A stretch of DNA of 32,000 nt from Gemmata obscuriglobus (GCF_008065095.1 NZ_CP042911.1:3570001-3602000), one strand, 5' to 3'; shown: positions 16,447 to 32,000, counted from the first letter of the stretch. The notes: generated by a model not told the origin, from the letters alone. Made by a program: numbers and translations.

Positions 16447-19400
16447 TCACTTGCCGCGCGGGGCGGTGCCCATCGGCTTCCCGTTCTTGATGGTGACGTT
16501 GTACTGCTTGATCAGTTCGCGGAACTCGGCCGGGAACTGGGCGTCGGTGGTCTGCTGCACCTTGTCGCGGTCCTTGCTGCGGAGCTTGATGAAGGCGCCG
16601 TCCCCGGTCGTTCCGGTTCCGGACGAGCCGGCGTTCTTGAGCTTCTCGCCGCCGGCGCGGTCGCCTTCGCTCGTCCCCATGTTCGTACTCTGTTGGGACG
16701 TGCCCATTCCCATACCCATTCCCATCCCGGGTTGCATCCCCATCCCGGCCTGAGCCATACCCGTGCCCATCCCCGGCTCCATTCCCATGCCCATGCCGGG
16801 TTGCGTGCCCATTCCCATACCGGCCTGGGCCATCTGACCCATTCCGGGTTGGGCACCGGGCATGCCCTGGGCCATTGCGGCCTGGTTCAGCGCGTCGAGC
16901 GCTTGCTGGAGCCCCTGAGCGGCCTGCTGCTGGCTCATTCCGGCCTGATCCGGTTGCCCCTTCTGCAATTGATCGCCTGCTTTCTGGAGCTGGTCACCGG
17001 CCTGTTGCAACTGGTTCTGCACGGCCATCGGCGCGTTCGCCTGGGCCTGCTGGAGGGCGGCTTGGGCCTCGGCGTTCGCCTGCTGCGACTTGCGGAGCGC
17101 CTTTGTGGCGTCGAGCACCTTCTGCTGGAGTTCGATGAGCTGATCGGTCGTCGGGCTCTCGGGCAGCTTGTATTTCTCGATCAGCTCCTTGATGTCCTTG
17201 TCGCCCGCATCCTTATCGTCCAGCGGGGCGCACGGGTTGTCCGGCGGCCCCTTGTCACCCTTCTTGTCCAGCTCGGCCTTCTGCTCCTGTTCAACCTTCA
17301 CTTTCTTCAACGCGCCGAGCGCGCGCTCCTGGTACTCGATGCACTGCGGCACGTCGCCTTTCTCGAACGCTTTCGCGGCGAGATCGGCGGCCTTTGCGGC
17401 GTCGGGCATGTTCTGCTCGGCCGCTTTGATCGCGATGTACTTCTGGAGCGCCAGGATCTGCGGCCCGTCCTTCTGCTTGGCGTCGGCGGGCGTGCCGTCC
17501 GGGACGTTCAGCGGCTGTGCCTTTTTCGCCTTCTCGGCGGCGTCCTTCGCCTGCTCGATGGCCTTCGCGAGCTGCTGCGCGGCCTGCTGCGGGTCGACCT
17601 TGTTGGGCTGAAGCGCGGCCTGGTCCGCGGCCTCCTGGCCCTTCTTTTCGTCGATCTTCTTCTGCACGTCCTTTGCGGCGTCGGCGAGCTTGTCCGCGGC
17701 TTCTTTGGCCTTTTGGCCGCCCGCCATCGGCATGTTCATCGCGAGGTCGCTCTGCGCGCCCTCTTGCTTCGTGTTCGCATCGCCGACCTTGCCGGCGGCA
17801 TCGGGGGCGAGTTCCTTCAGCTCTGCGCCCACATCTTTCGTTGACTGATTCAGGTCCGCTTGCTTCTTCGCGAGGTCCCCGGTTTCGGGCTTTTTCGGAT
17901 CGCCGGCGGCCCGGTCGGCTGCCTTCGCCACGTCCTTCTCGCCTTTGGCGAGTTCGTCCAGTTTGCCCTTGAGGTCTTCGAGCTTGGCGATCTCGGCGCG
18001 GCGCTGTTCGATCGCCTTCGCTTGTTTTTCCAACTCGTCTCTGGCCCGTTCGAGGGCCTGCAGCGCGTCCTGCTGCTTCGGCTTCGCCGCGTCCGGTTGC
18101 TGGTTATCGAGTTGCGCGGCCGCCTGCTTTTGCGCGTCCAGCGCCTTGTCGAGCGCTGCTTTTGCGTCGGTGTTGGGCGGGAGCGGGGCGCCGCGTAGCT
18201 CCTCGGTCTTCTTGGCGACATCCTTCTGTGCGGTCGCGGCCTCGGGGGCACGTTCCGGCTTGGCCGAGGCCTTATCGGTTTTGGCGTTCGCGTCCTTCTG
18301 TTCCTTGATGATGGCGTCGAGGCGTTCGGCGGCCTGTTTGGTGGCGGCCAGCGAGTCCACCTTTGCGAGTTCCGCGGCGGCGATCTGGCGGTCGAGTTCG
18401 TCCTTCGCCTCGTTCAGCTCCTCCAGGGCCTGCTGCTGGGGCTCTTTGGCGCTGGCGATGTCGCGGTTGCGGAGCTTCTCTTCGGCGTCCCACTCTTTGC
18501 GCTCGGCGGAGCGGAGCTTCTCGGCCACGTCCGGGGCCGCCTCGAACGTCGCCTTATGGGCGTCGCGGGCGGCGAACTCGGCCTTGGTCTGCTGGTTGGC
18601 CAGTTCGTTCGCGCGGACGGTGTTCGGGTCGCTCCCCTGGCGCTGGATGCGGCGCACCTCGGCGGCGTCGAGCCGCTCGGCGGTGTCCCGGTTCACTTTC
18701 GTCTGGGCGCCGATCGCCTTATTGACCTCGGCTTGCGCCTTCTTGAGCGCGTCGAGCCGGCTGGCGGGCGGGGTCCGAAGCGCCGCTGCCAGATCCTTCA
18801 GCTCCTTCGTGTGGCGCCGCTGCGGCACGCTGGCACTGGTAAATGCACCCGCTTTTAGAAGGCCGGCGGTGTCCTTCATGTCCTCGGCCAGCTTCGCGCC
18901 GCGGGACAAAGCCTCGGCCCGTTCGAGCCGGGCCAGTTGGTCCGGGGTGAGCAGCTTCTCGGTCACCAGTCGGTTGACCTGTTTGAACACCGCGAGCACC
19001 TCGACCCGCAGTTCGCCCTGTTCGGCGGCGAGCGGCCCGCGGTCGTCGATGCGTACCGACCCGCGGGTGGGCAGGGTGGTGTTCGTGTGCGTGTCGCCGA
19101 TCAGCGCGATCTGCTTTTCGGCCGCCCGCTCGAGCCGGTCGGCGGCCTCGTCGAGGTTCTTGATGACGTCCAGTTGGCCCAACATCACCTTGAGCTGGGT
19201 GATGATCGTCTTGCTCGCCTCGGCGGCCTCTCTTTGCTCCTTGGTCGCGTTGGCGGGCGCCGCGACGGCCGCTTCAAGGTGGGCGAGTACGGCCCGGATC
19301 TCGGTCTCGCTCAGCCCGCGGAGGTCGTCGGCCACGCCGCGGAGCATCTTCTGCTCGGCGCCCGGCGCGAGCCGCTGGAACATGAGCGCGTCGAGCGTCG

Positions 19401-19560
19401 AGGACGTGCGGCGCGCGGCCTCGTCGATGCGGGCTTTGATCTTCTGCTGGTCGTCCCGCTGCTTGGCCGGGTCGGCGCTCTTGTCCTGCGAGGTGGCGAG
19501 CGGAACGAGGAGCCCGACCAGGAGCAGCGCGGCCGCGAACCAGCTACGACGGGTCGTCAT
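16447..19560 (-). CDS. Secreted giant coiled-coil/low-complexity protein (1037 aa) with a C-terminal Gly-Met repeat tract
   Basis: AAGGAGG lies 7 nt upstream of ATG 19560. MTTRRSWFAAALLLVGLLVPLATSQ is a signal peptide. About 900 aa are A/K/Q/E/D/L-rich heptad-like sequence. These are followed by a 55-aa GM tract and a C-terminal block GDGAFIKLRSKDRDKVQQTTDAQFPAEFRELIKQYNVTIKNGK. Confidence 0.8.
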   Translation of the reverse strand: MTTRRSWFAAALLLVGLLVPLATSQDKSADPAKQRDDQQKIKARIDEAARRTSSTLDALMFQRLAPGAEQKMLRGVADDLRGLSETEIRAVLAHLEAAVAAPANATKEQREAAEASKTIITQLKVMLGQLDVIKNLDEAADRLERAAEKQIALIGDTHTNTTLPTRGSVRIDDRGPLAAEQGELRVEVLAVFKQVNRLVTEKLLTPDQLARLERAEALSRGAKLAEDMKDTAGLLKAGAFTSASVPQRRHTKELKDLAAALRTPPASRLDALKKAQAEVNKAIGAQTKVNRDTAERLDAAEVRRIQRQGSDPNTVRANELANQQTKAEFAARDAHKATFEAAPDVAEKLRSAERKEWDAEEKLRNRDIASAKEPQQQALEELNEAKDELDRQIAAAELAKVDSLAATKQAAERLDAIIKEQKDANAKTDKASAKPERAPEAATAQKDVAKKTEELRGAPLPPNTDAKAALDKALDAQKQAAAQLDNQQPDAAKPKQQDALQALERARDELEKQAKAIEQRRAEIAKLEDLKGKLDELAKGEKDVAKAADRAAGDPKKPETGDLAKKQADLNQSTKDVGAELKELAPDAAGKVGDANTKQEGAQSDLAMNMPMAGGQKAKEAADKLADAAKDVQKKIDEKKGQEAADQAALQPNKVDPQQAAQQLAKAIEQAKDAAEKAKKAQPLNVPDGTPADAKQKDGPQILALQKYIAIKAAEQNMPDAAKAADLAAKAFEKGDVPQCIEYQERALGALKKVKVEQEQKAELDKKGDKGPPDNPCAPLDDKDAGDKDIKELIEKYKLPESPTTDQLIELQQKVLDATKALRKSQQANAEAQAALQQAQANAPMAVQNQLQQAGDQLQKAGDQLQKGQPDQAGMSQQQAAQGLQQALDALNQAAMAQGMPGAQPGMGQMAQAGMGMGTQPGMGMGMEPGMGTGMAQAGMGMQPGMGMGMGMGTSQQSTNMGTSEGDRAGGEKLKNAGSSGTGTTGDGAFIKLRSKDRDKVQQTTDAQFPAEFRELIKQYNVTIKNGKPMGTAPRGK
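16702..16866 (-). repeat. Coding Gly-Met microsatellite-like tract (GMPGAQPGMGQMAQAGMGMGTQPGMGMGMEPGMGTGMAQAGMGMQPGMGMGMGMG)
   Basis: The plus strand shows iterated cccat(t/a/g)cc units. By my count the 55 residues contain 16 Met and 20 Gly. Confidence 0.85.
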
Positions 19561-19703
19561 CGGCGGGCCTCCTTGAGGCGTTGGGGTCGTGGGAGAGCGG
19601 CGACCCGACGAGAATCCGTTAAGTATCCAACCGTTCCGCACCGAATGCAACCGGGAATCGGTCCGCCCGTTACCGGTTCGCTGCGGCGCCGGACGGGCCG
19701 GCG

Positions 19704-21995
19704 CTATTTCTTCTCCGGCTCTTTCGGCGCGTTCGTGGTTTGCCGGAACAGGTCGGCCTGGTCGGTGGCCAACTCGCGGAGCTTGTCCTGGAGCTGGAGC
19801 TGGAGCTGGCGGTTCTGCTCGTCGCGCATCTTGATCGCGACGCCCGCTTCCTCACCGGTCACCACGGTTTTCCGCCGGGCCTCGCGCGAGTGCCCCGGCG
19901 CGCGCCCGGGCGTAGGGTTCTTGTCGAACGCCTCGACGTATAATTCAACCGTGTCCCCGACCTCAAGTTTCGCGGTGGTGAACCCGCCGCTCCCGTCCGG
20001 GACGGTTTTTTGCAGCCCGTCGATCTCGAACATGTACCGCCCGCCGGCCTCCAGACCGGCGGGTTCCGCTTCCGGGTTCGGCGATGGCTGTGAGTAGAAC
20101 TCGACGTTCACCTTGAACTGGTCGAACTTGCTCAGCCCCTGCCAGGACTTCTCGAACAGCCCCAGGTCGGGCACGTAGTTGCCCACGGCCGCCAGGTTCG
20201 CGGTGACCGGTTTCAGCGGGAGTCGCTTGAAGACCTTCTTGTTCTCGGGCCAGTTCCAGTCCTGGCGCGGGTGCTGGACCTGTTGCCACTCGGGCGGCAT
20301 CGCGTCGGGGGCGACGCCCTTCGGGATCACCCGATAAGCGACGGCGGCCCGACCGACGCCCTGTTCCGAGCGGGCGCTGTAGACAACCATCACGCGCCCC
20401 CCTTCGGCGAGGGGGAACCGGTCGCCCCACTCGTGCGCCAGCTTGGCGGTGGACGTGCCGTGGTAGTTCTCCGGGTCCGGGTGCCGGGTGGACTCGGGCA
20501 GGAGCGCGACCGCCGGCGGGCGGTCCTCCAGCATGCGAACGGTGCGCCGGATCGGCACCTCGTTCGTGAACCCGCGGTCGTCGGTCAGTTCGATGCGGTA
20601 GCCGATCAGCTTCTCGTTCGTGGGGAACAGCCAGACCGCCGAGCGGCGGTCGGTGTCGATGTCGCGGGGCAACTGGAAGTTGTCCCCCGCCGACGGAACG
20701 AAATCCCGTTCGCGCGCCCCCTCGCGCAGGATCGGCACGAGCCGAGCGGACCGCACCGGCTTGTTGAACTTGGCGTCCACGCGGATCTGGGCGAGGGGCA
20801 GGGCGTCGCTCACGTCGCCGCGGACCCAGCCGTCGGTCCGGCGCACGAACGGCCCGCCGTCGGGTTGCGTGCCGAGGAACTTCGGGAGCCACAGTTCCGC
20901 GGTGAGTGCGTCGCCGTCGGGGCTGAGCTGCGGCCGCCCCTCGAACCGCACCCGGCCGGTTTCGCGCGTGCGGCCGCTGTCCAGGCGCGCCGAGAACCCG
21001 AAGTTGATGGACGAGGGCGGCAGCTTCGTGACGAAGTACGCTGCCCCGGGCTTGCCGGGCACCTCCTTCTCGTACACGAGGTCGTAGGTCTCTTCGGGCT
21101 GGCCGTCGGGCTCGACCCGTAGCCGGCCGCTGAACCCGGCGGTCGGCGGCGGGAGCGCGAACCCGAGTTCCGCACGAAGGCGGTCCGTGAACCACGGCCG
21201 CGGGTACGCGCCGGTCACCTCGTAACGCACCTGGACCTCCGCACCGATCGGCCATACCTCTTCGGACACGTTCTTCAACTGGATGCTGCGCGGGATCTCG
21301 GCGCTCACCAAAAGCTGGCGGCGGAGCAGCACCCCGGCCAGCGCGGGTTTCGCGAGCCCGAACACGGTCCAGCCGATCAGGACCGGCGCCGCCACGAGCA
21401 GCGCGAAGCCCAGCCGGCGGTAGTCCACGAGTTGTAGGAGGTTGTGAGCGGCGGCCAACTGGCCCGCCTCGCGCGTCACCGCGGCGATGAGGGCGGGCGA
21501 CATCCCGTGCGTGCGCGCGGCCGGGCGGTTCAACTGGATGGCGGTTACGAGCCGGTGCCCGAACGCCGGGATCGCCTTTTCCGCATGCTGTGCGAGGTCG
21601 TCGATCGGCGGGGTGCGCAGCCACGGGCGGACGAGCAGCCAGTAGGTCAGCCCCAGGGCGAGGGCGAGCTGCCCGAAGGTCATTCCGGCGTGCATCCAGC
21701 CGGGGGTATCATCGATGACCGCGGCCGGCGGGGGGCGGAACCCGTGGGCGAGCCGCATGTGGTCGCTGAACCAGCGCTCCTCGGCGGTGGGTGCGGTGGG
21801 GGCGAACACCCAGGTGGCGCTGAGCACCCGGCGCCACGTCTCGGACCCGAGGTAGCGGTCGGCGGTCCAGTCGGCGAAGCACGCGAGCGCGAGAACGGTG
21901 CCGAGGATCGCGACCAGCCGCGCCCCGCCCCACACGACCCGGATGAGCCGCTCGGTGCGCCGCCAGTGCCGGAGTTGCTCGAGTAGCAGGTTCAT
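19704..21995 (-). CDS. Large membrane protein (3 predicted TM segments plus a ~500-aa extracytoplasmic beta-rich domain); DUF4175-like N-terminus
   Basis: MNLLLEQLRHWRRTERLIRVVWGGARLVAILGTVLALACFADW resembles the N-terminal arrangement of DUF4175-type proteins found next to Bat/VWA genes (weak, from memory). Further TM segments are GMTFGQLALALGLTYWLLV and LGFALLVAAPVLIGWTVFGL. Start set at ATG 21995 rather than track start 22190. Confidence 0.6.
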   Translation of the reverse strand: MNLLLEQLRHWRRTERLIRVVWGGARLVAILGTVLALACFADWTADRYLGSETWRRVLSATWVFAPTAPTAEERWFSDHMRLAHGFRPPPAAVIDDTPGWMHAGMTFGQLALALGLTYWLLVRPWLRTPPIDDLAQHAEKAIPAFGHRLVTAIQLNRPAARTHGMSPALIAAVTREAGQLAAAHNLLQLVDYRRLGFALLVAAPVLIGWTVFGLAKPALAGVLLRRQLLVSAEIPRSIQLKNVSEEVWPIGAEVQVRYEVTGAYPRPWFTDRLRAELGFALPPPTAGFSGRLRVEPDGQPEETYDLVYEKEVPGKPGAAYFVTKLPPSSINFGFSARLDSGRTRETGRVRFEGRPQLSPDGDALTAELWLPKFLGTQPDGGPFVRRTDGWVRGDVSDALPLAQIRVDAKFNKPVRSARLVPILREGARERDFVPSAGDNFQLPRDIDTDRRSAVWLFPTNEKLIGYRIELTDDRGFTNEVPIRRTVRMLEDRPPAVALLPESTRHPDPENYHGTSTAKLAHEWGDRFPLAEGGRVMVVYSARSEQGVGRAAVAYRVIPKGVAPDAMPPEWQQVQHPRQDWNWPENKKVFKRLPLKPVTANLAAVGNYVPDLGLFEKSWQGLSKFDQFKVNVEFYSQPSPNPEAEPAGLEAGGRYMFEIDGLQKTVPDGSGGFTTAKLEVGDTVELYVEAFDKNPTPGRAPGHSREARRKTVVTGEEAGVAIKMRDEQNRQLQLQLQDKLRELATDQADLFRQTTNAPKEPEKK

Positions 21996-22108
21996 TCGTC
22001 GGTGCCCAAACGCGCCAGCACGTTGGCTCTTTGTGACCCCTGCTCCCTTGCGGGAAGGGGCAAAAATCGAACGCCAGCGCGGAGGCGCCGGCCGGTGAGG
22101 CGGGTTAC

Positions 22109-24634
22109 TCAGCTCAACCCGCTGAACTTTCGCAGGAACCACTCGACCGACAGCAGCCCGATGAGCAGGAACAGGGGCCACCGGTTCCACAGGACGACTT
22201 CCTCGCGCTTGGTGAACGTTGCGAACTGCGCCTTCACGTCGTCTGGTAGCCGGTGCAGATCTTCCTCGCGGTAGAAGCGGCCCGGTCGTTCGGCCGACCC
22301 GCTCTCGGCCGCGAGCTTCGCCATCTCGGCTTCGGCCAAGCTCCCCGGCGCCTGTTCGTGATCGGGCGGCAGCGTGACCCGGTATTCCAGCGTCGCGGGC
22401 GAACGGTTGCCCGGCGACACGTGGAGCTTGTACCGCCCCGCACGGCTGAACGTCAGCGGCGCGACGTACTCGCCGTCCTGGCCGGGCAGCTTCTGGAGCT
22501 TCACCGGCGTGCGGGCGTCTTTGTCGTCCCCGCCCCCTCCGATCCGCTCCAGCGTGGCGCTGACCTCGTCCGCGGTGAGCGCCTTAAAGTTCTCGTCGAG
22601 CACCCGGGCGTAAACCTGCCCGGTCCGGCCCTGCACCGGTTCGAGCGTGTCCAGCGACACCTGGGTCAGCTTCGTCCCCGTCGCCCGCGGGACGCCGGCC
22701 TGGTACACGCACTGGCTCCAGAACCGGCCGAAGTACCGGTCGGCCTCGTTGAACCGCCACTTCCAGGTGTCGTCGAACGCGCTGAACAGCACGTACCCCT
22801 TGCCGTAATAGTGGCCCGCCAGCAGCGGCAGCGGCCGGTCGTCCGGCCCGGGGGTGCGCTGGGTCGGGTGGACTAAGAACGCCTCGGCGCCGGGCTTCAG
22901 CCGCGTCACGGGGTAGTACCACTCCATCGGCTGCAACTGCTTCGTCTGCGACGCCCGCTCCGGGGGCTCGGCCGCTTCGGTGCGGGCGGTGCGGTCCCAC
23001 AGCATCGCGTTGTCGGTCGGGATGTCTTCCAGCGCCACCAGCGGGCTGCGGATCGCGCTGGGCGCCAGCGCCGGAACGAACGGCTGGTAGTACCGGCCCC
23101 CCGGCGGGCGGGGCGGGAACTTTACCGGGACCGCCTCGACCGGGAGCACGTCCGCGATGGTGTGCCGGCCCGTCTCGGCGCTGAGCCACTCGTGCGGCGC
23201 GTGGACCTTCCCGGCGATGTGGATCAGCCCGCCCCCCTCGGTCACGAACTCCTTGATCACCTGCTGCTGGTCGGGCGTGAAGAACGCGCCCGGGACGTCG
23301 CCGATGATCAGGAGGTCGTAGGCGTTGATCAGCTTGCGGAACGACTCGCGCTCGAGCGCGAGGGTGCCGTTGTCCTGCTGCGTGAACTCGGCCAACCACG
23401 GCTCGCCGAGCTTCATCGCGTCGCGGTCGCCTTCGGTGAGGAAGAACCGCGCGTCCACCCGCCGGTCCCGCTGCAGCGCCCGCATCAGGAACTGGAAGTC
23501 CTTCCGCGGGAGCCCTTCGACCACGAGCACCTGGAGCTTCTTGGTGATGATCTGGGCCGGCTTGGTCACGGTGTCGGTGAGCGGGTCGCGCGCGCCGGGG
23601 CCGTCGGGCCGCACCGTGACCGTGACGGTCACCTCCTGCCGATTCGCCGCGATGTCTTCTTGCGTCGGCACGAAGCTGAGTTGCTCGCGGATGTCGTCGC
23701 CCTCGCGCACCGGGATGTCCCGCTTCGCGGCCACCTCGCGGTCGCCGAACTTCACCACGACGTCTACCTTGCCCGCGGCCACGCCCTTCACGGCGTACCG
23801 CACCGGCACCGTCACGATGTCGTCCTGGAACACGGACTCGGGCACGCTGGCGTCGCGCAGGCGGAGCTGTCCGAAGGACGAGCTGCCGACGCCGTAGACG
23901 TGCAGCGGCACCTTGCGGTCGCGGAACCGCTCGGCGAGTTCCGCGAAGGTCTTGCTGCCGCCGTTCTCGCGCCCGTCGGTGACCACCACCACCGCCGCGG
24001 GCAGGTCGTTGTCGTCTCGGTTGAGCAACTCCAGCGCGGACGCGACGAGGGCCGTGCGCGGCTGGTCGGGGGTCTGTGCCTTGAGCCACTCGAGGTCGTT
24101 ACCGTCCTTACCGCCGGAGCGGGTCGTGCCGAACGTCGAGACCTCGAGCGGTCCGATCGCCTTGAGCCGGTTCAGCAGGTCGAGGCGCGGGTTCGTGAGC
24201 GCGGCGCGGGCGACCGCGAACCGCGACGGGCGCTCCTCCTTTTCCGGCGGGGCCGTCGGGAGCGGTTTGTTCGGCTCGATGAGGTCGAACGCCAGTGCCG
24301 CCCGCCAGTGGTCTTCCGGCGCGGGCCGCGGGTCCTTCTGGTCCATGCTCTGGGACACGTCGATGAGCACCGCGACGGGGCGCCGGCGCTGGGCGCTGTC
24401 CTCCCGGACCCATGTGGGGCGGAGCAGCAGGAACGCGACGACCAGCACGACCGACATGCGAACGCCCGCGAGCAGCAGCCGGCGCACGACGCCGAGCCCG
24501 CCGGCCTCGAACACGTACAGCGCCCCGACCGCGACCACCGCCGCCGCCGCAAGAAGCAGCGCCAGCCACGCGGGGAACCAGCCGCGGCGCTGCAACTCGG
24601 CGAACAGTTCGGCGGACGCGAACAGAGCGTTCAT
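22109..24634 (-). CDS. Membrane-anchored VWA-domain protein with GATase1-like domain and C-terminal TM anchor (841 aa)
   Basis: Two N-terminal TM segments (WFPAWLALLLAAAAVVAVGALYVF and GVRMSVVLVVAFLLL). MIDAS-like VAVLIDVSQSMD, then AAVVVVTDGRENGG. LQVLVVEGLPRKDFQFL...YDLLIIGDVPGAFFTPDQQQVIKEFVTEGGGLIHIAG resembles a class-I glutamine-amidotransferase-like fold. The C-terminal anchor is WPLFLLIGLLSVEWFLRKF. Start at ATG 24634; the longer track ORF runs through a palindromic repeat. Confidence 0.75.
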   Translation of the reverse strand: MNALFASAELFAELQRRGWFPAWLALLLAAAAVVAVGALYVFEAGGLGVVRRLLLAGVRMSVVLVVAFLLLRPTWVREDSAQRRRPVAVLIDVSQSMDQKDPRPAPEDHWRAALAFDLIEPNKPLPTAPPEKEERPSRFAVARAALTNPRLDLLNRLKAIGPLEVSTFGTTRSGGKDGNDLEWLKAQTPDQPRTALVASALELLNRDDNDLPAAVVVVTDGRENGGSKTFAELAERFRDRKVPLHVYGVGSSSFGQLRLRDASVPESVFQDDIVTVPVRYAVKGVAAGKVDVVVKFGDREVAAKRDIPVREGDDIREQLSFVPTQEDIAANRQEVTVTVTVRPDGPGARDPLTDTVTKPAQIITKKLQVLVVEGLPRKDFQFLMRALQRDRRVDARFFLTEGDRDAMKLGEPWLAEFTQQDNGTLALERESFRKLINAYDLLIIGDVPGAFFTPDQQQVIKEFVTEGGGLIHIAGKVHAPHEWLSAETGRHTIADVLPVEAVPVKFPPRPPGGRYYQPFVPALAPSAIRSPLVALEDIPTDNAMLWDRTARTEAAEPPERASQTKQLQPMEWYYPVTRLKPGAEAFLVHPTQRTPGPDDRPLPLLAGHYYGKGYVLFSAFDDTWKWRFNEADRYFGRFWSQCVYQAGVPRATGTKLTQVSLDTLEPVQGRTGQVYARVLDENFKALTADEVSATLERIGGGGDDKDARTPVKLQKLPGQDGEYVAPLTFSRAGRYKLHVSPGNRSPATLEYRVTLPPDHEQAPGSLAEAEMAKLAAESGSAERPGRFYREEDLHRLPDDVKAQFATFTKREEVVLWNRWPLFLLIGLLSVEWFLRKFSGLS

Positions 24635-24728
24635 AGGCGCGCGGCACCCGTTATCGAACAAAGACCCGGCGTCTGACACCACGTCCGGTTGAAGGCGAGT
24701 TCCCAAGAACGCCGCCGCATGTATTCGT

Positions 24729-24861
24729 GGAGCGACCCACCCCCGACCCCTCCCTGCAGGGAGGGGAGCGAAGCACTTCGGAATCGCTTCGCACATCGTG
24801 TTCGCTTGGCGCTGACGCAGAACTCCCCTCCCTGCAGGGAGGGGCCGGGGTGGGTCGCTCC
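24729..24861. repeat. Composite palindromic element: two inverted ~37-38-bp units, each containing the perfect 20-bp palindrome cccctccctgcagggagggg (24747-24766, 24825-24844)
   Basis: Left unit ggagcgacccacccccgacccctccctgcagggagggg. Right unit cccctccctgcagggaggggccggggtgggtcgctcc, the near-perfect reverse complement. The spacer carries a 7-bp hairpin gcgaagc...gcttcgc. The element lies in the 361-bp gap between the two VWA genes. Confidence 0.8.
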
Positions 24862-24995: not shown

Positions 24996-27242
24996 TCACC
25001 ACGCCCGGCCGCAGAACCACGCCCACGTCGCTTCACCCATCAGGAGCAACAACAGCGCCAGCAGGACCCACTCGGTCCATTCGCCGTGGGTGCGGCGCTC
25101 GCGGATCGCGGTCTCGGTGCCGGCCCCCGCCTGGATGATCGTTGGGCGGTACCCGAGCATTTTCTCCAGCTCTGAATCAGACACCGGTTCGAGGTTGTCG
25201 GTTTCGCGCAAATCCGGATTGACCGCGAACGTGGCGCCGTCGGCTTGAGCCCCGCCGGCCGGCACGATCGCGTATTCGCCGGCCACCAGCGAATCGGCGG
25301 TGCTGACGACCGGCCGCGCCCCGGCACCGGCCTTCGCTTCGCCGAGCTTCACCCGCAGACGGTTCCGGCCGTCGTCGCCTTTACCGGTTCGCGGGCGCGG
25401 CTTGATCAGTTCGTACCCGGACGCCGCAACCGGCGGCGCCCAGGTTAGCGTGTCGCCGGCCGTCCGCGCGCCGCCCGGAACCTTGCGGCCCGTGAGGTGC
25501 GAAACGATGTACGTGGTCAACGGGACCGCGAACTGGCCGTCTGCCATCAGCCGGCTACCCCAGGACTCGTCAAGCGGGGCGGCGAAGAAGAGCACCTCGC
25601 CGTCGCCGACCACCCGCGACGCCACCAGCGGCCGGTTGTCGGTGGTGCGGACCCGCACCCGCCCGCCGGCGGCGTCGGGGCCGGTGTCGTCCAGGTGCAG
25701 CATCCGGGTGAACGTGGCGCGGTCGATCCAGTCGGCGTAGGGCTTCACCTTCCCGAACACGTCGTCCCGGTCGTCGATGCTTTCGACCGCCGGCCGGAAC
25801 GGCGCCTCGGCGGTCGCGGCCGGGAGGTCCGGCCCGAGCGGCACGGGTAACAGCCCGGCGCCCGCGCGGCCCAGCACGCGGTTGTAGTCGCCCGGGTTTA
25901 CCAGCGGGCCGGCGCCGAAGACGAGCCCGCCGCCGCCCTTCACGAACTCGGCGAGCTGCGAGACGAACGCGGGCGGCATCCCGACGAACGGGTCGTCGGT
26001 GCGCACCGGCGCGTTCAACAGGTAGACGATGTCCTTGCCGGCCAGCTTGTCCGGCCCGACCTCGGCCGGTTGCACGGACTCCGTGGCGATGAAGTACTTT
26101 TCGATCTTGTCCCGCTCGCGCTCGGTGTCGAACGGGACCAGGGCTTTGCGCACGAACCAGTCGCCGGCGTCGGTGGCCGGCAGGCCAGCGAACGGGTGGG
26201 CCACCAGGAGCGCGTTCACCTTATCGCGCACGCCGACGATCTTGTAGAGGACGTTGTCCCCGTCGAGCCCGTCGCCGTCGGCGTACACCGCCAGCAGCCG
26301 CGGCCCGGACTCCTCAAGGCCGCCGGTGAGCGTGACCTCGGCGGTGGCGCCGGGGTCGATTTGGTCGATCTGGGTCGCGTCGCGCTCCACCGCCTTGCCG
26401 TCGAGTTCGAGCGACACCTTGATCCCGCGGACCGGTTCCGGGCCGGTGTTCTTGACCGTCACGACGAAGGGCACGCGGGTGCGGGTGTGCGGGATCGCGG
26501 CCAGTAGCTTCACGTCCACGACCGAGACGTTCGGGATCTTGCGCCCCGGGTTCCCGCACCGGACGAACACGAGGCCCGCCTTCTTCTCGCGGGCCTCCTC
26601 GCACTTCGCCCGCAGCCCCGGCTGCTGGCGCTCGAACCCGCTCTTCTGCAGGTCACTGAAGACGTAAATCTCCTTCGCCGGGGCGGTGCCGGTCTCGGCC
26701 GCCGCGAGCGCGTCGGTCAGCCCGGGCAGGACGTCCGTCGAGAGGCTCGTCACCTCGATGGAGCGAACGAGCTGCTTCGCCTGGTCGCGGTTGTACCGCG
26801 ACACCGGGCCGAGCGCTTGCGCGCGGTCGGCACAGGCGTAGATCTGCACGGACGACTGGTCGGGCAGGGCGTCGAGCACCGCGACGGCCGCGTCCTTGGC
26901 GCGCTCGAGGCGCGTTTTCTCGCCGTCGCGGGCGGCCATGCTGTACGACGTGTCGAACATCAGGACCGCGTCGACGGGGCCGTCCGATGCGGCCCCGGAC
27001 ACGGAATCGAGCGCCGGGCGGGCCAGCGCGAGGGCGAGCAGGATCAGCGCGAGGCACCGGAGCAGCAGGAGCAACCGCTCCTGAAACTTGAGGCGGCGGC
27101 TGGTCTGCTCGACGGCCTCTCGGAGCAGCTTCATCGGCCCCCACGGCAGCGGCTTGTACCGCGCGCGGTAGAAGAAGTGCAGCGCGAGCGGCACGGTAAC
27201 GGCCGCCGCGCCGAACAGCATCAGGGGGGCCTGGAACGGCAT
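24996..27242 (-). CDS. BatA-like protein: N-terminal double-transmembrane domain plus VWA domain plus C-terminal TM anchor (748 aa)
   Basis: MPFQAPLMLFGAAAVTVPLALHFFYRARYKPLPWGPMKLL...LLLLLRCLALILLALALARP is the aerotolerance-regulator (BatA) N-terminal double-TM signature. The VWA MIDAS is VDAVLMFDTSYSMAARDG. The C-terminus EWTEWVLLALLLLLMGEATWAWF is a TM segment. Confidence 0.85.
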   Translation of the reverse strand: MPFQAPLMLFGAAAVTVPLALHFFYRARYKPLPWGPMKLLREAVEQTSRRLKFQERLLLLLRCLALILLALALARPALDSVSGAASDGPVDAVLMFDTSYSMAARDGEKTRLERAKDAAVAVLDALPDQSSVQIYACADRAQALGPVSRYNRDQAKQLVRSIEVTSLSTDVLPGLTDALAAAETGTAPAKEIYVFSDLQKSGFERQQPGLRAKCEEAREKKAGLVFVRCGNPGRKIPNVSVVDVKLLAAIPHTRTRVPFVVTVKNTGPEPVRGIKVSLELDGKAVERDATQIDQIDPGATAEVTLTGGLEESGPRLLAVYADGDGLDGDNVLYKIVGVRDKVNALLVAHPFAGLPATDAGDWFVRKALVPFDTERERDKIEKYFIATESVQPAEVGPDKLAGKDIVYLLNAPVRTDDPFVGMPPAFVSQLAEFVKGGGGLVFGAGPLVNPGDYNRVLGRAGAGLLPVPLGPDLPAATAEAPFRPAVESIDDRDDVFGKVKPYADWIDRATFTRMLHLDDTGPDAAGGRVRVRTTDNRPLVASRVVGDGEVLFFAAPLDESWGSRLMADGQFAVPLTTYIVSHLTGRKVPGGARTAGDTLTWAPPVAASGYELIKPRPRTGKGDDGRNRLRVKLGEAKAGAGARPVVSTADSLVAGEYAIVPAGGAQADGATFAVNPDLRETDNLEPVSDSELEKMLGYRPTIIQAGAGTETAIRERRTHGEWTEWVLLALLLLLMGEATWAWFCGRAW

Positions 27243-27272
27243 CGCGGGGAACCCTGTCGGGGAGCGGCGTCG

Positions 27273-27827
27273 TTACCGGTTGCTCGTCAGGGGACGCTTG
27301 GCCGGGGCGGGCGGCTTCTCGGCGGACTTCTCGAACTTCAGCACGAGGACGCCCGGCGCGGACGGCTGGGGCGTGCGGGCCTTGAACTCGGTCGGCAGTG
27401 CGCCGCCGCCAGAGAACGCGACGAGGAGGTGGTCCCCGTCGAACTGGTAGATCCACTTTTCCGGCGGCTGCGGCTTCCCGTCCGGTCCGCTCGGGGTCAG
27501 GGTCAGCGTCTTCGGGTTCGCGGCGGTGTCCCAAACGACGGCGTGCGTTTCGCCCGGATCGGCGGACGATTCGCCGTAGGTCAGCTTGGTGCTCGAAAAG
27601 TGCAGCCACAGCGCGCGGTCGGCGGACGGCGATTTCATCCCGTCCCCCTTGTCCCCGCCGACCATTTTCCAGTACCCCTGGCACCGGTCCTGGTCCGACG
27701 CGGTCGCCCCGGGGCCGGACGGCCCCGGAGGAGCGCCCTCGGGAGCAGGGGCGGGTGCGGGCGTTTTGCCGCACCCGGCGGCGAGAACCGTGCCCACGAG
27801 CAGCGCGGTGAAAGCGGGCGTGCGCAT
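27273..27827 (-). CDS. Lipoprotein with TIGR03067-like (Planctomycetes uncharacterised) domain
   Basis: MRTPAFTALLVGTVLAAGC is a lipobox. Domain blocks are CQGYWKMVGG, ANPKTLTL, KWIYQFDGDHLLVAF, LPTEFK and VLVLKFEK. AGGAG lies upstream of ATG 27827, which is 17 nt after the preceding stop. Confidence 0.7.
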   Translation of the reverse strand: MRTPAFTALLVGTVLAAGCGKTPAPAPAPEGAPPGPSGPGATASDQDRCQGYWKMVGGDKGDGMKSPSADRALWLHFSSTKLTYGESSADPGETHAVVWDTAANPKTLTLTPSGPDGKPQPPEKWIYQFDGDHLLVAFSGGGALPTEFKARTPQPSAPGVLVLKFEKSAEKPPAPAKRPLTSNR

Positions 27828-27844
27828 CGGTTCGTTGCTCCTGG

Positions 27845-28579
27845 CTACTTGGTCGTCGCTCTGATCGGGAGTGTGCTCACGGGCTGGGTGCTGGCTCGCG
27901 TCCGGAACGGCGGCGGTTCGGTCGTTCTCTTCAGCGTGATGACCATCACCGCGGGGACCGCCGGCTGCCCCGCCTGGCTCGATTCCGCCCGGGGCTTGAA
28001 CTCCGTCGGCACCAACGTTTTGTTCTTCTTGATGAACGCGACCGTGAGGGTGTCGCCGTCCAGTTTGTAGATCCAGCGCCACGTTTCCGACGGGCGCGGG
28101 GGATTGGCGCTGCCGGCACCCGTTCCGTAGGCCGCTCCTCGGGAGGTGCCGGCCCGATAGGACCCCGCCCGCGCGGTGCTGAACGCCGCCGTCGCGCGCG
28201 GGGCGACCGCGGTGCCGCCGCGCGCGGTGGACACCGCCACGGGAACGTCCGGGCCGCCGAGCCGGAGCGCCAGCACCTTCGGGTTCTTGGATTCATCCAG
28301 GGTGAACGACACCGGCTCGTTCTCGCCCTGCTCGACGATGATCATCCGGTACCCGTCGAACACGAGCCGGACCTGCTTGATCATCTCCTCGGCTTCCTTC
28401 CGCTCAACGCCGGTGAGCGTCTAGATGTGCCCGTCCTCGGCGGACGTGACGGCCCAGACGCCCTGGAGCGCCTTGGCGTCTCCTCTGAGTTCGTCGGACC
28501 GGGAGTTGGGCTGGGTCGGCCGCGCGCAGCCGCCAACGGCGGCTGCGGCGATCAGTACGAGCGGGACGAACTTGCGCAT
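27845..28579 (-). pseudogene. TIGR03067-like lipoprotein gene interrupted by an in-frame TAG at codon 53 (28421-28423)
   Basis: ATG 28579 gives MRKFVPLVLIAAAAVGGCARPTQPNSRSDELRGDAKALQGVWAVTSAEDGHI*TLTGVERKEAEEMIKQVRLVFDG... and continues in the same frame as track ORF 27845..28384. The paralogous fragment at 29320-29490 has GAA (Glu) at this codon. A GAGGAA RBS precedes the ATG, 15 nt after the upstream stop. Confidence 0.65.
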
Positions 28580-28594
28580 GGACGTTTCCTCGCT

Positions 28595-29101
28595 TCACTT
28601 CGGGACGCGGGTGAAGGTCATGAGCTGGATGCCGCCCGGTGTGTCCTTGTTGTCGAACCCGCGGGGCGCCTGGTTGCCGCCCGAAGTAGCGAGTACGAGT
28701 GTATCAGCTTTGAACGTGTAAATCATCACGCACGGTAGCTCCGCTGCCTCGTCTCGAACCGGCACGCCCTTCAGGGTGGTCACCCGCGCTTCGGGCCACG
28801 CCAGCCGGGTCGGGTTTGCCGTCGTGTCGATTCGAATCACGGCGATACGCCGTTGGTTCTGTTGTTTGTCAACTACGGTCAGCTTGTTACCCCGAAACTC
28901 CAGGACGATTTCAATACGGGTGTCAGGTGGTACGTTTTTTCCGTTGATTTCCATCTCTGTGAGCTTCCAGTCGCCCTGGAGCTTTTGGAGATCCGGCTCC
29001 TCGCCCTTCATCAGGTGCCTGGGCACCGGGCCGCCCAGCACCAGATTGCCGGGGGCACAGATAAGTGCGAAGGGAACCGCGAACAGCGCGAGGAACTTCA
29101 T
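28595..29101 (-). CDS. Secreted TIGR03067-like domain protein (copy A of a tandem duplication)
   Basis: MKFLALFAVPFALICAPGNLVLGG is a signal peptide. Domain blocks are LQKLQGDWKLTEMEINGKNVPPD, IDTTANPTRL, CVMIYTFKADTLVLATSGGNQAPRGFDNK and IQLMTFTRV. Start at ATG 29101; the longer track ORF reads through the upstream leader. Confidence 0.75.
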   Translation of the reverse strand: MKFLALFAVPFALICAPGNLVLGGPVPRHLMKGEEPDLQKLQGDWKLTEMEINGKNVPPDTRIEIVLEFRGNKLTVVDKQQNQRRIAVIRIDTTANPTRLAWPEARVTTLKGVPVRDEAAELPCVMIYTFKADTLVLATSGGNQAPRGFDNKDTPGGIQLMTFTRVPK

Positions 29102-29319
29102 GGGGCGTTTCCTGGCCTGGAGGCCCGTTGCCGGTGGCACTGTTAGCAAGCGATCGCACCACACGACCGCTGGGGAAAATTGAACAGGACCGACGCGATG
29201 AGTGAGGTGCGAGGGGCCGGAGGGGGGCCGCTCTCGCTCATCTCTCTCCCGTGGATCCGGTCTGCCACCGTCTTCGGTTCCGCCACTGTGCAGCCACAGG
29301 CCGAGGGGAACAAGCCCAT
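29102..29319. repeat. 218-bp conserved leader/intergenic repeat, copy 1 (213/218 identical to 30019-30236)
   Basis: Aligned by eye, with 5 mismatches. It lies immediately upstream of the MKFLALF start codon in both copies. Confidence 0.85.
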
Positions 29320-29490
29320 GTCCTTCCGCTCCGCGCCGGTGAGCGTTTCGATGTGTTCGTCCTCGGCGGAAATGACGGCCCACACGCCCTGGAGCGCCTC
29401 GGCGTCCCCCTTGAGTTCGTCCGACCAGGAGTTGGGCTGGGTCGGCCGCGCGCAGCCGCCAACGAGTACGAGCGGGACGAACTTGCGCAT
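29320..29490 (-). pseudogene. Truncated 5' fragment (~57 codons) of a TIGR03067-like lipoprotein gene, cut off at the tandem-duplication junction
   Basis: MRKFVPLVLVGGCARPTQPNSWSDELKGDAEALQGVWAVISAEDEHIETLTGAERKD is homologous to the N-terminus of the 27845..28579 gene. After codon ~57 the ORF (track 29143..29490) runs into leader repeat copy 1 and loses all domain similarity. Confidence 0.7.
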
Positions 29491-29505
29491 GGCCGGTTCC
29501 TCGCT

Positions 29506-30018
29506 TCACTTCTGGACGCGGGTGAAGGTCAGGAGCACGACCTCCGGTTCGTTCTTGTTGTCGAACCCGCGGGGCGCCTGCTCCTGGTTGCCGCTGCGGG
29601 CGGCGAGTACGAGTTTACCAGCTTCAAACTTGTAAAGCATCACGCACGGCTTCTCCGCATCGTCGTCCTTCACCGGCCCGCCGTTCAGGTCGGTGACCCG
29701 CGCCTGCTGCCAGGTGATTCGGGCCGGCTGCGCTTTCGTGTCGAGCCGGAAGGTGGCGGTCGTCCGCTGGTTTTGTTGCCCGGCGGTCACGATCAGCGTG
29801 TCGCCGCGCACCTCCAGCCCGCTGCCGGCGTTGTGTCGGCTCATGTCGATTTCGGCTCCGCCGAGCGACACCGCCGTGAGGTTCCACTCGCCCTGGAGTT
29901 TTTGAAGCTCCGGGTCTTCGCCCTTCATCAGGTGTTTGGGCACCGGGGCGCTCAGTACCGGGTCGCCGAGGGCACAGACAAGTGCGAAGGGAACCGCGAA
30001 CAGCGCGAGGAACTTCAT
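29506..30018 (-). CDS. Secreted TIGR03067-like domain protein (copy B of a tandem duplication)
   Basis: MKFLALFAVPFALVCALGDPVLSA is a signal peptide. Domain blocks are LQKLQGEWNLTAVSLGGAEI, LDTKAQPARI, CVMLYKFEAGKLVLAARSGNQEQAPRGFDNK and VVLLTFTRV. Start at ATG 30018. Confidence 0.75.
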   Translation of the reverse strand: MKFLALFAVPFALVCALGDPVLSAPVPKHLMKGEDPELQKLQGEWNLTAVSLGGAEIDMSRHNAGSGLEVRGDTLIVTAGQQNQRTTATFRLDTKAQPARITWQQARVTDLNGGPVKDDDAEKPCVMLYKFEAGKLVLAARSGNQEQAPRGFDNKNEPEVVLLTFTRVQK

Positions 30019-30236
30019 GGGGCGTTTCCTGGCCTGGAGGCCCGTTGCCGGTGGCACTGTTAGCAAGCGACCGCACCACACGACCGCTGGGGAAAATTGA
30101 ACAGGACCGACGCGATGAGTGAGATGCGAGGGGCCGGAGGCGGGCCGCTCTCGCTCATCTCTCACCCGTGGATCCGGTCTGCCACCGTCTTCGGTTCCGC
30201 CACTGTGCAGCTACAGGCCGAGGGGAACAAGCCCAT
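30019..30236. repeat. 218-bp conserved leader/intergenic repeat, copy 2
   Basis: See 29102-29319. Similarity ends abruptly at caagcccat (30236), which marks the outer boundary of the duplication. Confidence 0.85.
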
Positions 30237-30280
30237 TTTCATCCTGATTCGTGAACCCATCTGCGGTGTCGCTTTTGTTG

Positions 30281-30347
30281 TTGACGAGCCGCGACCGCCA
30301 GGGAGCGGGGTAAGTGGCTCCGCTCCCTGGCGGTCGCGGCTCGTCAA
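30281..30347. repeat. 28-bp perfect stem / 11-nt loop hairpin; REP-like element sharing a 20-nt core with the 4498-4682 element
   Basis: ttgacgagccgcgaccgccagggagcgg (30281-30308) is the perfect reverse complement of 30320-30347. The core acgagccgcgaccgccaggg is identical to 4498-4517. It lies 42 nt downstream of the stop of the 30389..30943 gene. Confidence 0.8.
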
Positions 30348-30388
30348 GAAAGCGGCCGTGTTACCGGGTACGCGTACGAGTTCAGGCA

Positions 30389-30943
30389 TCAGGGGCGTTC
30401 CAGCACCCACACGGGCGGGCCGTCGGGCGCGTCGAACGCCGCCGGGCGCGGGCTCGGGTCGGGCGCGACGACCACCCTGGCGGTTCCGTCCGAGAACGCG
30501 TAAATCCCGCGCAACACGAACGCGGACGGCTGATCGTCGGGGCCGATTAGCGCGAGGTCGAGTTCCTTCGGGTTCGCTTCGGGGCGGAGCGTGAGCCGGT
30601 ACCGCTTCTGCTCCTGCTCGCCGACGAGGTACACCCACCGGTCGCCGGTGATCCGCACCGTCACCGGGAGCCGGGTCTCGCGCCCGTTCGGGGCGAGGAG
30701 CCACACGCCCTGGAGCCGTTCGGCGTCGTCCCGGGGTTCAAGAGACCGGAGCGCGAAGTACCCGACGGCGCCTGCGGCGAGCCCCAGCACCACGAGGCCG
30801 ATACCCCAAAACCGCTTTCCGGAGGACGGCCGGGGAGGGCCGACCGGCGGGCGTGCGGAACCGGTGCCGGCTTGCGAAAGCCGTTCTTCCCCCTTCGCTT
30901 CGGTTGGGGGTGCCGGGGGTGTCGGTTCTTCAGCCACGCTCAT
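30389..30943 (-). CDS. Membrane-anchored TIGR03067-like domain protein, translationally coupled to DUF58
   Basis: ATG 30943 overlaps the DUF58 stop as ATGA. The product has a Pro-rich N-terminus, then a TM segment FWGIGLVVLGLAAGAVGYFAL. Domain blocks follow: ERLQGVWLLAPNGRE, ANPKELDL, LRGIYAFSDGTARVVVA, PRPAAFD and VWVLER. Confidence 0.7.
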   Translation of the reverse strand: MSVAEEPTPPAPPTEAKGEERLSQAGTGSARPPVGPPRPSSGKRFWGIGLVVLGLAAGAVGYFALRSLEPRDDAERLQGVWLLAPNGRETRLPVTVRITGDRWVYLVGEQEQKRYRLTLRPEANPKELDLALIGPDDQPSAFVLRGIYAFSDGTARVVVAPDPSPRPAAFDAPDGPPVWVLERP

Positions 30944-31830
30944 TTGCGTCCCATTTGCAGCCGGCGCACGAGGTATTCCGACAGCGCCACCTCGAGCGGT
31001 CGGTTCGTGAGCATCTTGACGTAGTCTACGCCGGCCCGGTCGCAACCGGCCTGGATGTCCGCGAGGTACCGCTTCACCACCCGCAGGTACGCCGGGCGCA
31101 ACAGTTGCGGGCGCGTCCGCAACTCCTCCGCGCCCTCCAACCCGACGAACCGGATGTTCCCGTCCAACGGGAAATTCACCTCGTCCGGGTGAAGCACGTG
31201 GAACAGGATCACCTCGTGCCCGCGGAACCGCAGGTGGCGTAGCCCTTCCAGAATGGGTTCAAGGTCTTCGAGGCAGTCGGAGATCAGGCACACGATCCCG
31301 CGGCGGCCGAGCCGGTCCGCGACCTCGCCGAGCAGCGGGCCGATGCGGGTACGGTCCCGCGGCTCCGTCCCTTCCAGCGTGTGGGTGATCGCGTTGATGT
31401 GCGCGAGGGACGAACTCGCCGGCAGCTCCGCGACCCAGCCGGTGTTGAAAATGCGGAGGCTGACGGTGTCGCGCTGGCGAACCGTCAGGTACGCCAGCGA
31501 CGCCGCGAGCAGTTTCGCGAACGCCAGCTTGTTCGCGTCCCCGCGGCCGTACCGCATCGAGTTGCTGCCGTCGAGCAGCAGGTGGCACAGGAAGTTGGTT
31601 TCCTGCTCGTACTGCTTGATGGTGTACCGCTCGCTGCGCCCGTAGCCCTTCCAGTCGATGTGCCGGATGTCGTCGCCGGGCACGTACTCGCGGTGCTGCA
31701 CAAACTCGACCGAGAACCCCTTGAACGGGCTCTTGTGGTCGCCCACGCGCAGCCCCTCCACCACCTGCCGGGCTTTCAAACCCAGGGCTTCGGCGCGGGC
31801 CAGGACTCGGGGATCGAGGTAGGTCGGCAT
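30940..31830 (-). CDS. DUF58 domain-containing protein (VWA-like, MoxR-associated)
   Basis: MPTYLDPRVLARAEALGLKARQVVEGLRVGDHKSPFKGFSVEFVQHREYVPGDDIRHIDWKGYGRSERYTIKQYEQETN is the canonical DUF58 N-terminal signature (HxSxxxGxSxEFxxxRxYxPGDDxRxIDW). Confidence 0.9.
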   Translation of the reverse strand: MPTYLDPRVLARAEALGLKARQVVEGLRVGDHKSPFKGFSVEFVQHREYVPGDDIRHIDWKGYGRSERYTIKQYEQETNFLCHLLLDGSNSMRYGRGDANKLAFAKLLAASLAYLTVRQRDTVSLRIFNTGWVAELPASSSLAHINAITHTLEGTEPRDRTRIGPLLGEVADRLGRRGIVCLISDCLEDLEPILEGLRHLRFRGHEVILFHVLHPDEVNFPLDGNIRFVGLEGAEELRTRPQLLRPAYLRVVKRYLADIQAGCDRAGVDYVKMLTNRPLEVALSEYLVRRLQMGRK

Positions 31831-31840
31831 TTTAGGATTG

Positions 31841-31943
31841 CGGAATGCGGAGCGCGGAATTCGGAATCAGAAGCACACCGGCGCGGAAGCGAACGCAGTT
31901 CGGATTCCTAGCTTTCGTTCCGAATTCCGTGTTCCGCATTCCG
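31841..31943. repeat. 26-bp imperfect inverted repeat (24/26) rich in CGGAAT units, in the moxR-DUF58 intergenic gap
   Basis: cggaatgcggagcgcggaattcggaa (31841-31866) pairs with ttccgaattccgtgttccgcattccg (31918-31943). The region is AT-richer than its surroundings. Each arm contains an EcoRI-type gaattc. Confidence 0.7.
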
Positions 31944-31949
31944 GGTTCG

Positions 31950-32000
31950 TCAGGCGGCCACCGCCTTGGCGGCAGTTTTGACCAACCGACGGATCACCTC
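31950..32000 (-). CDS. 3' end of an upstream gene, probably a MoxR-type AAA+ ATPase (only the last 16 codons are in the window)
   Basis: The minus-strand frame reads ...EVIRRLVKTAAKAVAA* and is open to the window edge. The MoxR assignment rests only on conserved MoxR-DUF58 gene order. The fragment itself is not diagnostic. Confidence 0.35.
   Translation of the reverse strand, partial: EVIRRLVKTAAKAVAA

Follow-up and report, generated by a model that had tools for sequence, protein, structure and literature searches.

TIGR03067 paralogues in the DUF58–BatA junction of a Gemmata obscuriglobus Bat-type operon: a candidate clade-specific accessory module

Operons that bring together a MoxR-class AAA+ ATPase, a DUF58 protein and a BatA-type membrane protein with a VWA domain ('Bat-type' operons) are widespread in several bacterial phyla, among them Bacteroidota, Spirochaetota and Planctomycetota; poorly understood as they are, they have been linked to stress tolerance and virulence. 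The described examples, in Bacteroides fragilis (BatA-E), Leptospira (Bat), Borrelia (BB0170-0176), Francisella and Riemerella, share a tightly packed core of MoxR (AAA_3), DUF58 and a BatA-type protein. Here we analyse a 32,000-nt stretch from the genetically tractable Gemmata obscuriglobus ('the window', whose positions serve as coordinates below, with all of the genes discussed on the minus strand), in which the same core is found and in which an array of small genes, encoding proteins of the TIGR03067 family, sits between DUF58 and the BatA-like gene. TIGR03067 (Planc_TIGR03067) is a planctomycete domain of unknown function, and the intact window copies match it over nearly the whole length of the model.

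The DUF58 gene (GobsT_30530, 30940..31830; Pfam DUF58 at 8.2e-39, plus VWA_2) encodes a VWA-like protein and comes second in the MoxR–DUF58–BatA operon; the window ends 170 nt upstream of it, so that MoxR lies beyond the window end, with MoxR (AAA_3) found directly upstream of DUF58 in Gemmata algarum and in metagenomic relatives. The BatA-like gene (GobsT_30450, 24996..27242; Pfam BatA, VWA_2 and CARDB, and TIGR02226) encodes an N-terminal double-transmembrane region, VWA and CARDB domains and a C-terminal transmembrane segment. MoxR, DUF58 and BatA thus form one co-directional cluster, as expected of a Bat-type operon. Two things set it apart from those described: one to six TIGR03067 genes are inserted, the first of which replaces BatA as the gene coupled to DUF58, and BatB-E are not recognisable, the downstream genes instead encoding large planctomycete-specific membrane proteins.

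TIGR03067 genes in the DUF58–BatA junction

The array consists of four intact TIGR03067 genes, one gene carrying an in-frame TAG and one truncated remnant, the order along the operon being DUF58, g1, A, frag, B, ps5, g6, BatA. The first gene, g1 (GobsT_30520, 30389..30943), encodes a low-complexity tail, a single transmembrane segment, a juxtamembrane motif and the TIGR03067 domain. Copy A (GobsT_30510, 29506..30018) and copy B (GobsT_30490, 28595..29101) encode proteins of a Sec-signal type, and g6 (GobsT_30460, 27273..27827) and ps5 (GobsT_30480 and 30470, 27845..28579, with the TAG at 28421-28423) are of a lipoprotein type; frag (GobsT_30500, 29143..29490) is what remains of a ps5-type gene. 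A spacer of 370 nt separates g1 from A, and the other intergenic gaps measure 15-41 nt. With 53-97 bits (g1 65.2, A 97.3, B 95.3, ps5 53.5, g6 83.5), five units out of six exceed the cutoff of 40.15 bits set by NCBIfam curators, and frag gives no match to the TIGR03067 hidden Markov model (HMM). The 107 positions of the model are covered from positions 1-3 to 107 in g1, A, B and g6, while the match of ps5 is split into two stretches by an inserted loop. None of the window proteins of this family has a Pfam match at E≤0.01.

An earlier note, made from the sequence of the window, had recognised this array of TIGR03067-like paralogues and its make-up of four intact, one interrupted and one truncated unit, and had described a shared pattern of about 110 residues; every boundary it gave holds, its proposal of an HMM search for the family is borne out by the scores above, and the pattern corresponds to the conserved alignment columns Q-G-x-W, the P of NPK, Y and the P of RP. 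Family membership is already known from RefSeq annotation, where the product name of the intact copies is 'TIGR03067 domain-containing protein'.

What distinguishes the array is its place in the operon. We searched 80 genome loci around DUF58 relatives (1.145 Mb), in all six frames, with a profile of the TIGR03067 domain. Every locus in which DUF58 is at least 75% identical, and which extends far enough, has between one and six TIGR03067 genes between DUF58 and BatA (L001-L015, L017, L018 and L061, from Gemmata, Frigoriglobus, Urbifossiella and other Gemmataceae); across the whole set, 35 of the 36 hits fall inside this junction, all of them on the operon strand. The single hit elsewhere, at 535..993 of a G. 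algarum locus (L001), is a lipoprotein-type TIGR03067 gene scoring 45.9 bits, which lies 3 kb upstream of MoxR with an opposite-strand gene and galE in between.

In the close loci the first TIGR03067 gene is always of the g1 type, with a tail, a transmembrane segment and the domain, and it is joined to DUF58 by a fixed arrangement of start and stop. In the window the two genes share ATGA at 30940..30943, the g1 ATG occupying 30943-30941 and the DUF58 TGA 30942-30940, as read from the sequence. The earlier note had pointed to this overlap as a sign of translational coupling, and we can confirm it: the same overlap is present in 19 of 19 close-relative loci (L001-L018 and L061, the contig of L016 ending just after the junction) and in the metagenomic contigs L081, L083, L085 and L088, that is, wherever it can be read. 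Six homologues of g1 or of A/B, fetched from metagenomes by sequence alone, all sit in a MoxR(AAA_3)–DUF58–g1–…–BatA arrangement, and among the homologues retrieved in this way no member of the g1 or Sec-type subfamily was found outside this operon. A further observation is that in one metagenomic contig (L084) a second gene for a MoxR-type ATPase (5784..6818) comes after g1 in place of BatA, which reflects either a rearrangement or an assembly chimera.

In a phylogenetic tree, g1 proteins form a clade with 95% bootstrap support and the Sec-type proteins one with 98%, the lipoprotein copies being less well resolved. The Sec-type and lipoprotein-type copies are separate subfamilies that occupy the same slot and number from none to five, through duplication, deletion and decay. 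Compared with TIGR03067 at large, the window copies define three operon-specific subfamilies (anchored, Sec-type and lipoprotein), one of which has a low-complexity loop inside the barrel. Two Fimbriiglobus loci (L029 and L035) have a different TIGR03067 gene, of the lipoprotein type, in the same slot, and in L029 this gene overlaps DUF58 by TGATG. All of the intact copies are under purifying selection in comparison with G. algarum, with ratios of nonsynonymous to synonymous divergence (dN/dS) of 0.13-0.40 (g1 0.20, g6 0.40); the value for DUF58 is 0.04.

Since the ATGA overlap is conserved, the g1 and Sec-type subfamilies were found only in this operon and the intact copies are under purifying selection, we favour a functional tie over chance insertion, at least for g1. 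The earlier note had argued for such a tie on behalf of the whole family; this is favoured for g1 at least, and has to be qualified, in that the tie is confined to one clade, copy number is variable even inside a species and two of the units are in decay.

Targeting, topology and predicted fold

The earlier note had also proposed that each class of copy has its own targeting device, and this survives a rule-based assessment (the PROSITE lipobox rule and hydrophobic segments). Both g6 and ps5 satisfy the lipobox rule, which frag, with a shortened h-region, does not; in A and B the N-terminus is hydrophobic but lacks a lipobox, and a conserved APVPKHLMKGE segment comes next; and g1 has a 46-residue low-complexity tail and then a single hydrophobic segment, residues 47-65. 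As every copy has a predicted export or membrane-anchor signal, the TIGR03067 domains should sit outside the cytoplasm. MoxR and DUF58 have neither an export signal nor a transmembrane segment.

BatA has transmembrane segments at residues 3-21, 56-74 and 726-744, with a loop rich in Lys and Arg between the first two, and from this distribution its VWA/CARDB body is predicted to be periplasmic. In this respect it resembles the BatA-domain protein BB0173 of Borrelia, for which a periplasmic-VWA topology has been shown experimentally (PMC5700661). The exported TIGR03067 domains would hence share a compartment with the predicted VWA/CARDB body of BatA.

Within g1, the conserved parts are the end of the transmembrane segment, a juxtamembrane motif (WYFAxRxPEPRDD) and the barrel. 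The cytoplasmic tail is not conserved: it varies from about 5 to 70 residues, is of low complexity and contains in-frame, repeat-derived motifs (PLPEGKGE/PLPSGRGAGG). Tails of g1 orthologues (P0022, P0026 and P0046; L061 678..1361; window 30806..30943) carry one to three in-frame PTPPAPLPEGKGEK and PLPSGRGAGGVGSS motifs, which look like a translated palindromic repeat of the Gemmata type; such repeats appear to be tolerated inside the coding region.

Confident AlphaFold2 models, built from an alignment of 87 sequences, were obtained for g1 (predicted local distance difference test score 83.9) and for A (84.4, with a predicted template modelling score of 0.75); a short helix comes first in them, and most of the remainder is β-strand. 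That of g1 has a helix at residues 45-66 and eight strands. Searched with Foldseek against the PDB, as the earlier note had suggested, they give weak but one-sided matches, in that the top ones are all lipocalin-like proteins or fatty-acid-binding proteins (FABPs): nitrophorin 4 (E 6e-3, probability 1.00), DUF4822, BACUNI_01346, BACEGG_01585 and many FABPs; the anti-sigma factor RsfG is also matched. Template modelling scores lie between 0.3 and 0.63 and are about 0.4 except for 4qrl (0.63), the target-normalised score for BACUNI_01346 being 0.63. The predicted fold resembles the β-barrel of lipocalins and calycins. When the PDB was searched by sequence with the family profile, no solved structure of a family member came up, the search returning a spurious match to a designed protein, and FABP and RsfG at E ~0.5.

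The likeness to bacterial lipocalin-like domains (Lipocalin_4 PF13648; 4qrl, 5byp, 4nw4) and to calycins (lipocalins and FABPs) lies in a predicted small antiparallel β-barrel with an opening G-x-W strand; unlike those proteins, the single-domain window proteins have no Pfam match, and the Foldseek matches of their models are weak. An HMM search of 1.84 billion cluster representatives returned 20,635 TIGR03067 clusters (at 50% identity) with E≤1e-3, many of their members having 2-12 tandem domains. Fifty-seven multidomain members include 15 with extracytoplasmic function (ECF) sigma-70 r2/r4 regions, 8 with DUF1559, 6 with a Ser/Thr kinase, 2 with BlaR1 M56 and 2 with a trypsin-like peptidase domain; 19 of the 57 reach Pfam Lipocalin_4 through summed weak per-domain matches, the best at 3.7e-17. 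The planctomycete ECF-sigma, Ser/Thr-kinase and BlaR1-type fusion proteins have the same domain in their extracytoplasmic parts, often in tandem beside signalling domains, whereas the window proteins are single-domain and without a signalling domain, their conserved partner being the operon.

Fold assignment and fusion census together suggest that the TIGR03067 family as a whole is an extracytoplasmic binding or sensing module, and for the domain itself the most fitting description is that of a lipocalin-like binding module outside the cytoplasm, joined in many cases to signalling proteins. The earlier note was right to call it a domain of unknown function; the predicted lipocalin-like fold and the fusions to signalling proteins can now be set beside that description.

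Possible roles of the array

Synthesising these observations, we propose that the MoxR–DUF58–BatA ('Bat-like') envelope operon of one lineage, the Gemmata/Frigoriglobus/Urbifossiella clade, has acquired the array as an accessory module, a reading that we hold with slightly better than even confidence, and within which we favour g1 as the core, surrounded by a variable periphery of secreted and lipoprotein copies. We envisage that g1 would be made in step with DUF58 and would insert into the inner membrane beside BatA, with its β-barrel facing the periplasm, where it might bind a small hydrophobic ligand or a segment of a partner protein and so serve the complex as an adaptor or specificity subunit; the Sec-type and lipoprotein paralogues, in the periplasm and at the outer membrane, could then add binding specificities that evolve faster. 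Of the roles entertained in the earlier note (substrates, adaptors or specificity factors), that of substrate is unlikely, the copies being exported and MoxR and DUF58 not, and that of periplasmic adaptor or specificity subunit is more tenable.

Several findings weigh against this proposal. About 55 of the 80 loci, from Gemmataceae and related bacteria with DUF58 no more than 71% identical, have no TIGR03067 genes, and an unfiltered HMM search of the DUF58→BatA gaps of the outgroups revealed no divergent ones; in several of these loci BatA itself overlaps or abuts DUF58, and others have unrelated insertions. The neighbourhood in related genomes, which the earlier note had named as a check on its idea, supports it at the junction in close relatives and fails to do so in these other Gemmataceae. 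Among the unrelated genes that the junction has taken up are those for a 275-aa secreted protein (L026 914..1770), a four-helix bundle of the 23S rRNA intervening sequence (IVS) type (L047 10889..11378) and a GxxExxY protein (L049 10889..11363), and REP-like (repetitive extragenic palindromic) repeats occur there as well; an IVS-type gene also stands between MoxR and DUF58 in L083 (3614..4045). From the absence of TIGR03067 genes in these loci, together with the unrelated insertions, it follows that the core system can do without the TIGR03067 proteins and that the junction is permissive. The genes are not a regular component of Bat-type operons, being specific to one clade. In three Fimbriiglobus genomes all that is left of the L029 gene is a conserved lipoprotein signal plus linker of about 45 residues (MRGLLILGLLTLALGC…PPSGWSP…TKPTGSKVE; L024 4493..4630, L028 3717..3870 and L076 730..880), which corresponds to the L029 N-terminus with the barrel deleted and whose start overlaps or adjoins the DUF58 stop (TGATG in L024 and L028). 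Two units of the window, ps5 with its TAG and frag, are themselves decaying, and copy number differs between strains of one species, G. algarum. The synteny was seen in genomes that are related to one another, and is in part inherited and not independent; the Foldseek E-values are weak (6e-3 to 5e-2); none of the 57 multidomain relatives fuses the domain to VWA, BatA, DUF58 or AAA+; and no Bat operon described in the literature that we found contains lipocalin-like or TIGR03067 genes.

Much of this would equally be expected if the paralogues were hitchhikers, one copy having landed in a permissive junction of a well-expressed operon, to be inherited and locally duplicated, drawing on the transcription of the operon with no part in Bat function. 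The large size of this expanding planctomycete family, the unrelated genes and repeats in the same junction of other lineages, the lack of an array in most Gemmataceae, the presence or absence of units at the level of strains, the nonsense mutation, the truncated remnant, the domain-less remnant in Fimbriiglobus and a dN/dS of 0.67 between A and B all point in the same direction. Set against these is g1, a single orthologous lineage that keeps a strict 4-nt overlap across at least three genera (with DUF58 identity down to 75%), the restriction of the sequence-retrieved g1 and Sec-type subfamilies to this operon, the second TIGR03067 subfamily that fills the same slot in Fimbriiglobus, and purifying selection on all intact copies; for these reasons we regard hitchhiking as a real but doubtful alternative. 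The domains might otherwise sense a periplasmic signal that g1 relays, through its transmembrane helix and tail, to DUF58/MoxR, thereby regulating the system. The fusions to sigma-70 r2/r4, protein kinase and BlaR1 M56 domains among the multidomain relatives are in keeping with this, as is the g1 layout of tail, transmembrane segment and ectodomain, which is what a minimal transmembrane sensor would have, and so is its translational coupling to DUF58, a cytoplasmic protein; a low-complexity tail of such variable length is, however, a poor candidate for a specific cytoplasmic interface, and no part of the Sec and lipoprotein copies is cytoplasmic, which leaves a sensor module improbable.

MoxR ATPases are generally thought to be chaperones for proteins encoded beside them, and the TIGR03067 genes, being co-located and coupled with DUF58, could on that basis encode clients that need the MoxR AAA+/DUF58 pair for folding or maturation. 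We consider this the least probable of the readings, given that all copies have Sec, lipoprotein or signal-anchor sequences and so leave the cytoplasm unfolded, away from a MoxR and DUF58 that have no export signal or transmembrane segment, and that thousands of TIGR03067 proteins elsewhere, in many other architectures, need no MoxR neighbour, even if just one of the 36 hits in the loci searched fell outside the junction. By analogy with LptC–LptA–LptD/E, in which proteins of the same fold bridge the envelope, one could also imagine a periplasm-spanning relay for a hydrophobic molecule, made up of anchored g1, soluble A/B and the lipoproteins ps5 and g6, and assembled on or gated by MoxR–DUF58–BatA; this is a long shot, but if it were true, TIGR03067 and the enigmatic Bat system would both have a concrete role in planctomycetes, that of transport.

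Our preferred reading, that of an accessory module with g1 at its core, predicts a periplasmic ligand- or partner-binding accessory subunit and points to the periplasmic face of BatA as a site of action. A subfamily tied to DUF58 by coupled start and stop is, in addition, a handle on two uncharacterised things at once, Bat operons and TIGR03067. In the literature we found no paper that names TIGR03067, and no function, structure or operon context for the family; nor did we find anything on Gemmata and MoxR, or on planctomycete lipocalin-like domains, that bears on this association. Nor did we find a description of the clade-specific, start/stop-coupled link to the operon, of three classes of localisation, of a lipocalin-like fold for the family or of its fusion partners as counted here. 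The finding extends existing annotation and can guide experiments on Bat operons and TIGR03067; it overturns nothing.

Array history, repeats and neighbouring genes

Part of the array arose by tandem duplication. The stretch 28395..29319 (unit 1: copy B with the region upstream of it, and the beginning of ps5) and the stretch 29321..30236 (unit 2: copy A, likewise with its upstream region, and the beginning of a lipoprotein gene of the ps5 type), both on the minus strand, are 82% identical over 940 columns (a unit of ~920 bp), and since each unit holds a Sec-type gene and the 5' part of a lipoprotein gene, the duplication accounts for the A/B pair and for the remnant frag. The first ~57 codons of frag derive from a ps5-type gene; past the junction near 29320, its open reading frame (ORF) enters duplicated intergenic sequence. 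The duplication is old, A and B having diverged to a dN of 0.30 and a dS of 0.45. It is present in G. algarum JC673 (L001), and the JC717 strain (L089) has only g1–B–ps5–g6, so that the unit is polymorphic within the species. The tract of copy A (29450..30050) is 99-100% identical between G. obscuriglobus and JC673 (dS 0.008), against a background of ~95-97% and a flanking dS of 0.05-0.15; either the A unit was recently exchanged between the species, or JC717 has lost it, might explain this. The identity of frag to its G. algarum counterpart is 85-89%, as against about 96% in neighbouring genes, as would be expected of decaying DNA.

The TAG in ps5 is a single GAG→TAG substitution. As the split gene is found in three independent G. 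obscuriglobus assemblies, and both G. algarum strains encode an intact protein of 246 aa, we take the TAG to be real and recent, and reject a sequencing error. The ps5-type lipoproteins (window 27845..28579; L002 2305..3000; L013 5331..6029) also have a low-complexity barrel loop of ~60 residues, rich in Ser, Thr, Arg, Gly and Ala, at a conserved position, and a low-complexity C-terminal tail of similar make-up.

Within the g1→A spacer, and starting 41 nt after the g1 stop, lies a perfect 28-bp hairpin (30281..30347, minus strand; ΔG -71 kcal/mol, z -12). A conserved terminator was considered and rejected, because G. algarum and other genera have different, unrelated palindromes at the same place (of the ATAGCCAGGGGTTGAC type in L007 and L011); the site looks like one of turnover of variable elements resembling REP sequences or miniature inverted-repeat transposable elements. 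An Rfam scan of the whole window gave no RNA family, which means that no known riboswitch or leader accounts for the conserved, duplicated region upstream of A and B. Scans of 27000-32000 gave no promoter-like site, and terminator-like sites at chance level, all on the non-coding strand.

Downstream of BatA, the next gene of the operon (22109..24796, minus strand, an 895-aa ORF) encodes a large membrane protein that matches VWA and GATase1-like models weakly, and is kept after BatA in most loci long enough to show it. Two exact copies of a palindrome, CCCCTCCCTGCAGGGAGGGG, lie between BatA and this gene (24747..24766 and 24825..24844), inside a larger inverted repeat of 28-34 nt; they give rise to spurious PSLQGG/PPCREG ORF fragments and probably also to a false N-terminal extension of the 895-aa ORF, the true start of which is probably near 24634. 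No PADLOC model of anti-phage defence proteins matched g1, A, g6, DUF58, BatA or the 895-aa protein. Further downstream of the operon are two large ORFs, 16447..19650 and 19704..22190 (1067 and 828 aa, both on the minus strand), neither of which has a Pfam or NCBIfam match; around the former the AT skew is strongly negative (-0.5 at 17-19 kb), and beyond the pair lies a prenyltransferase/squalene-cyclase-like gene at 15276..16316.

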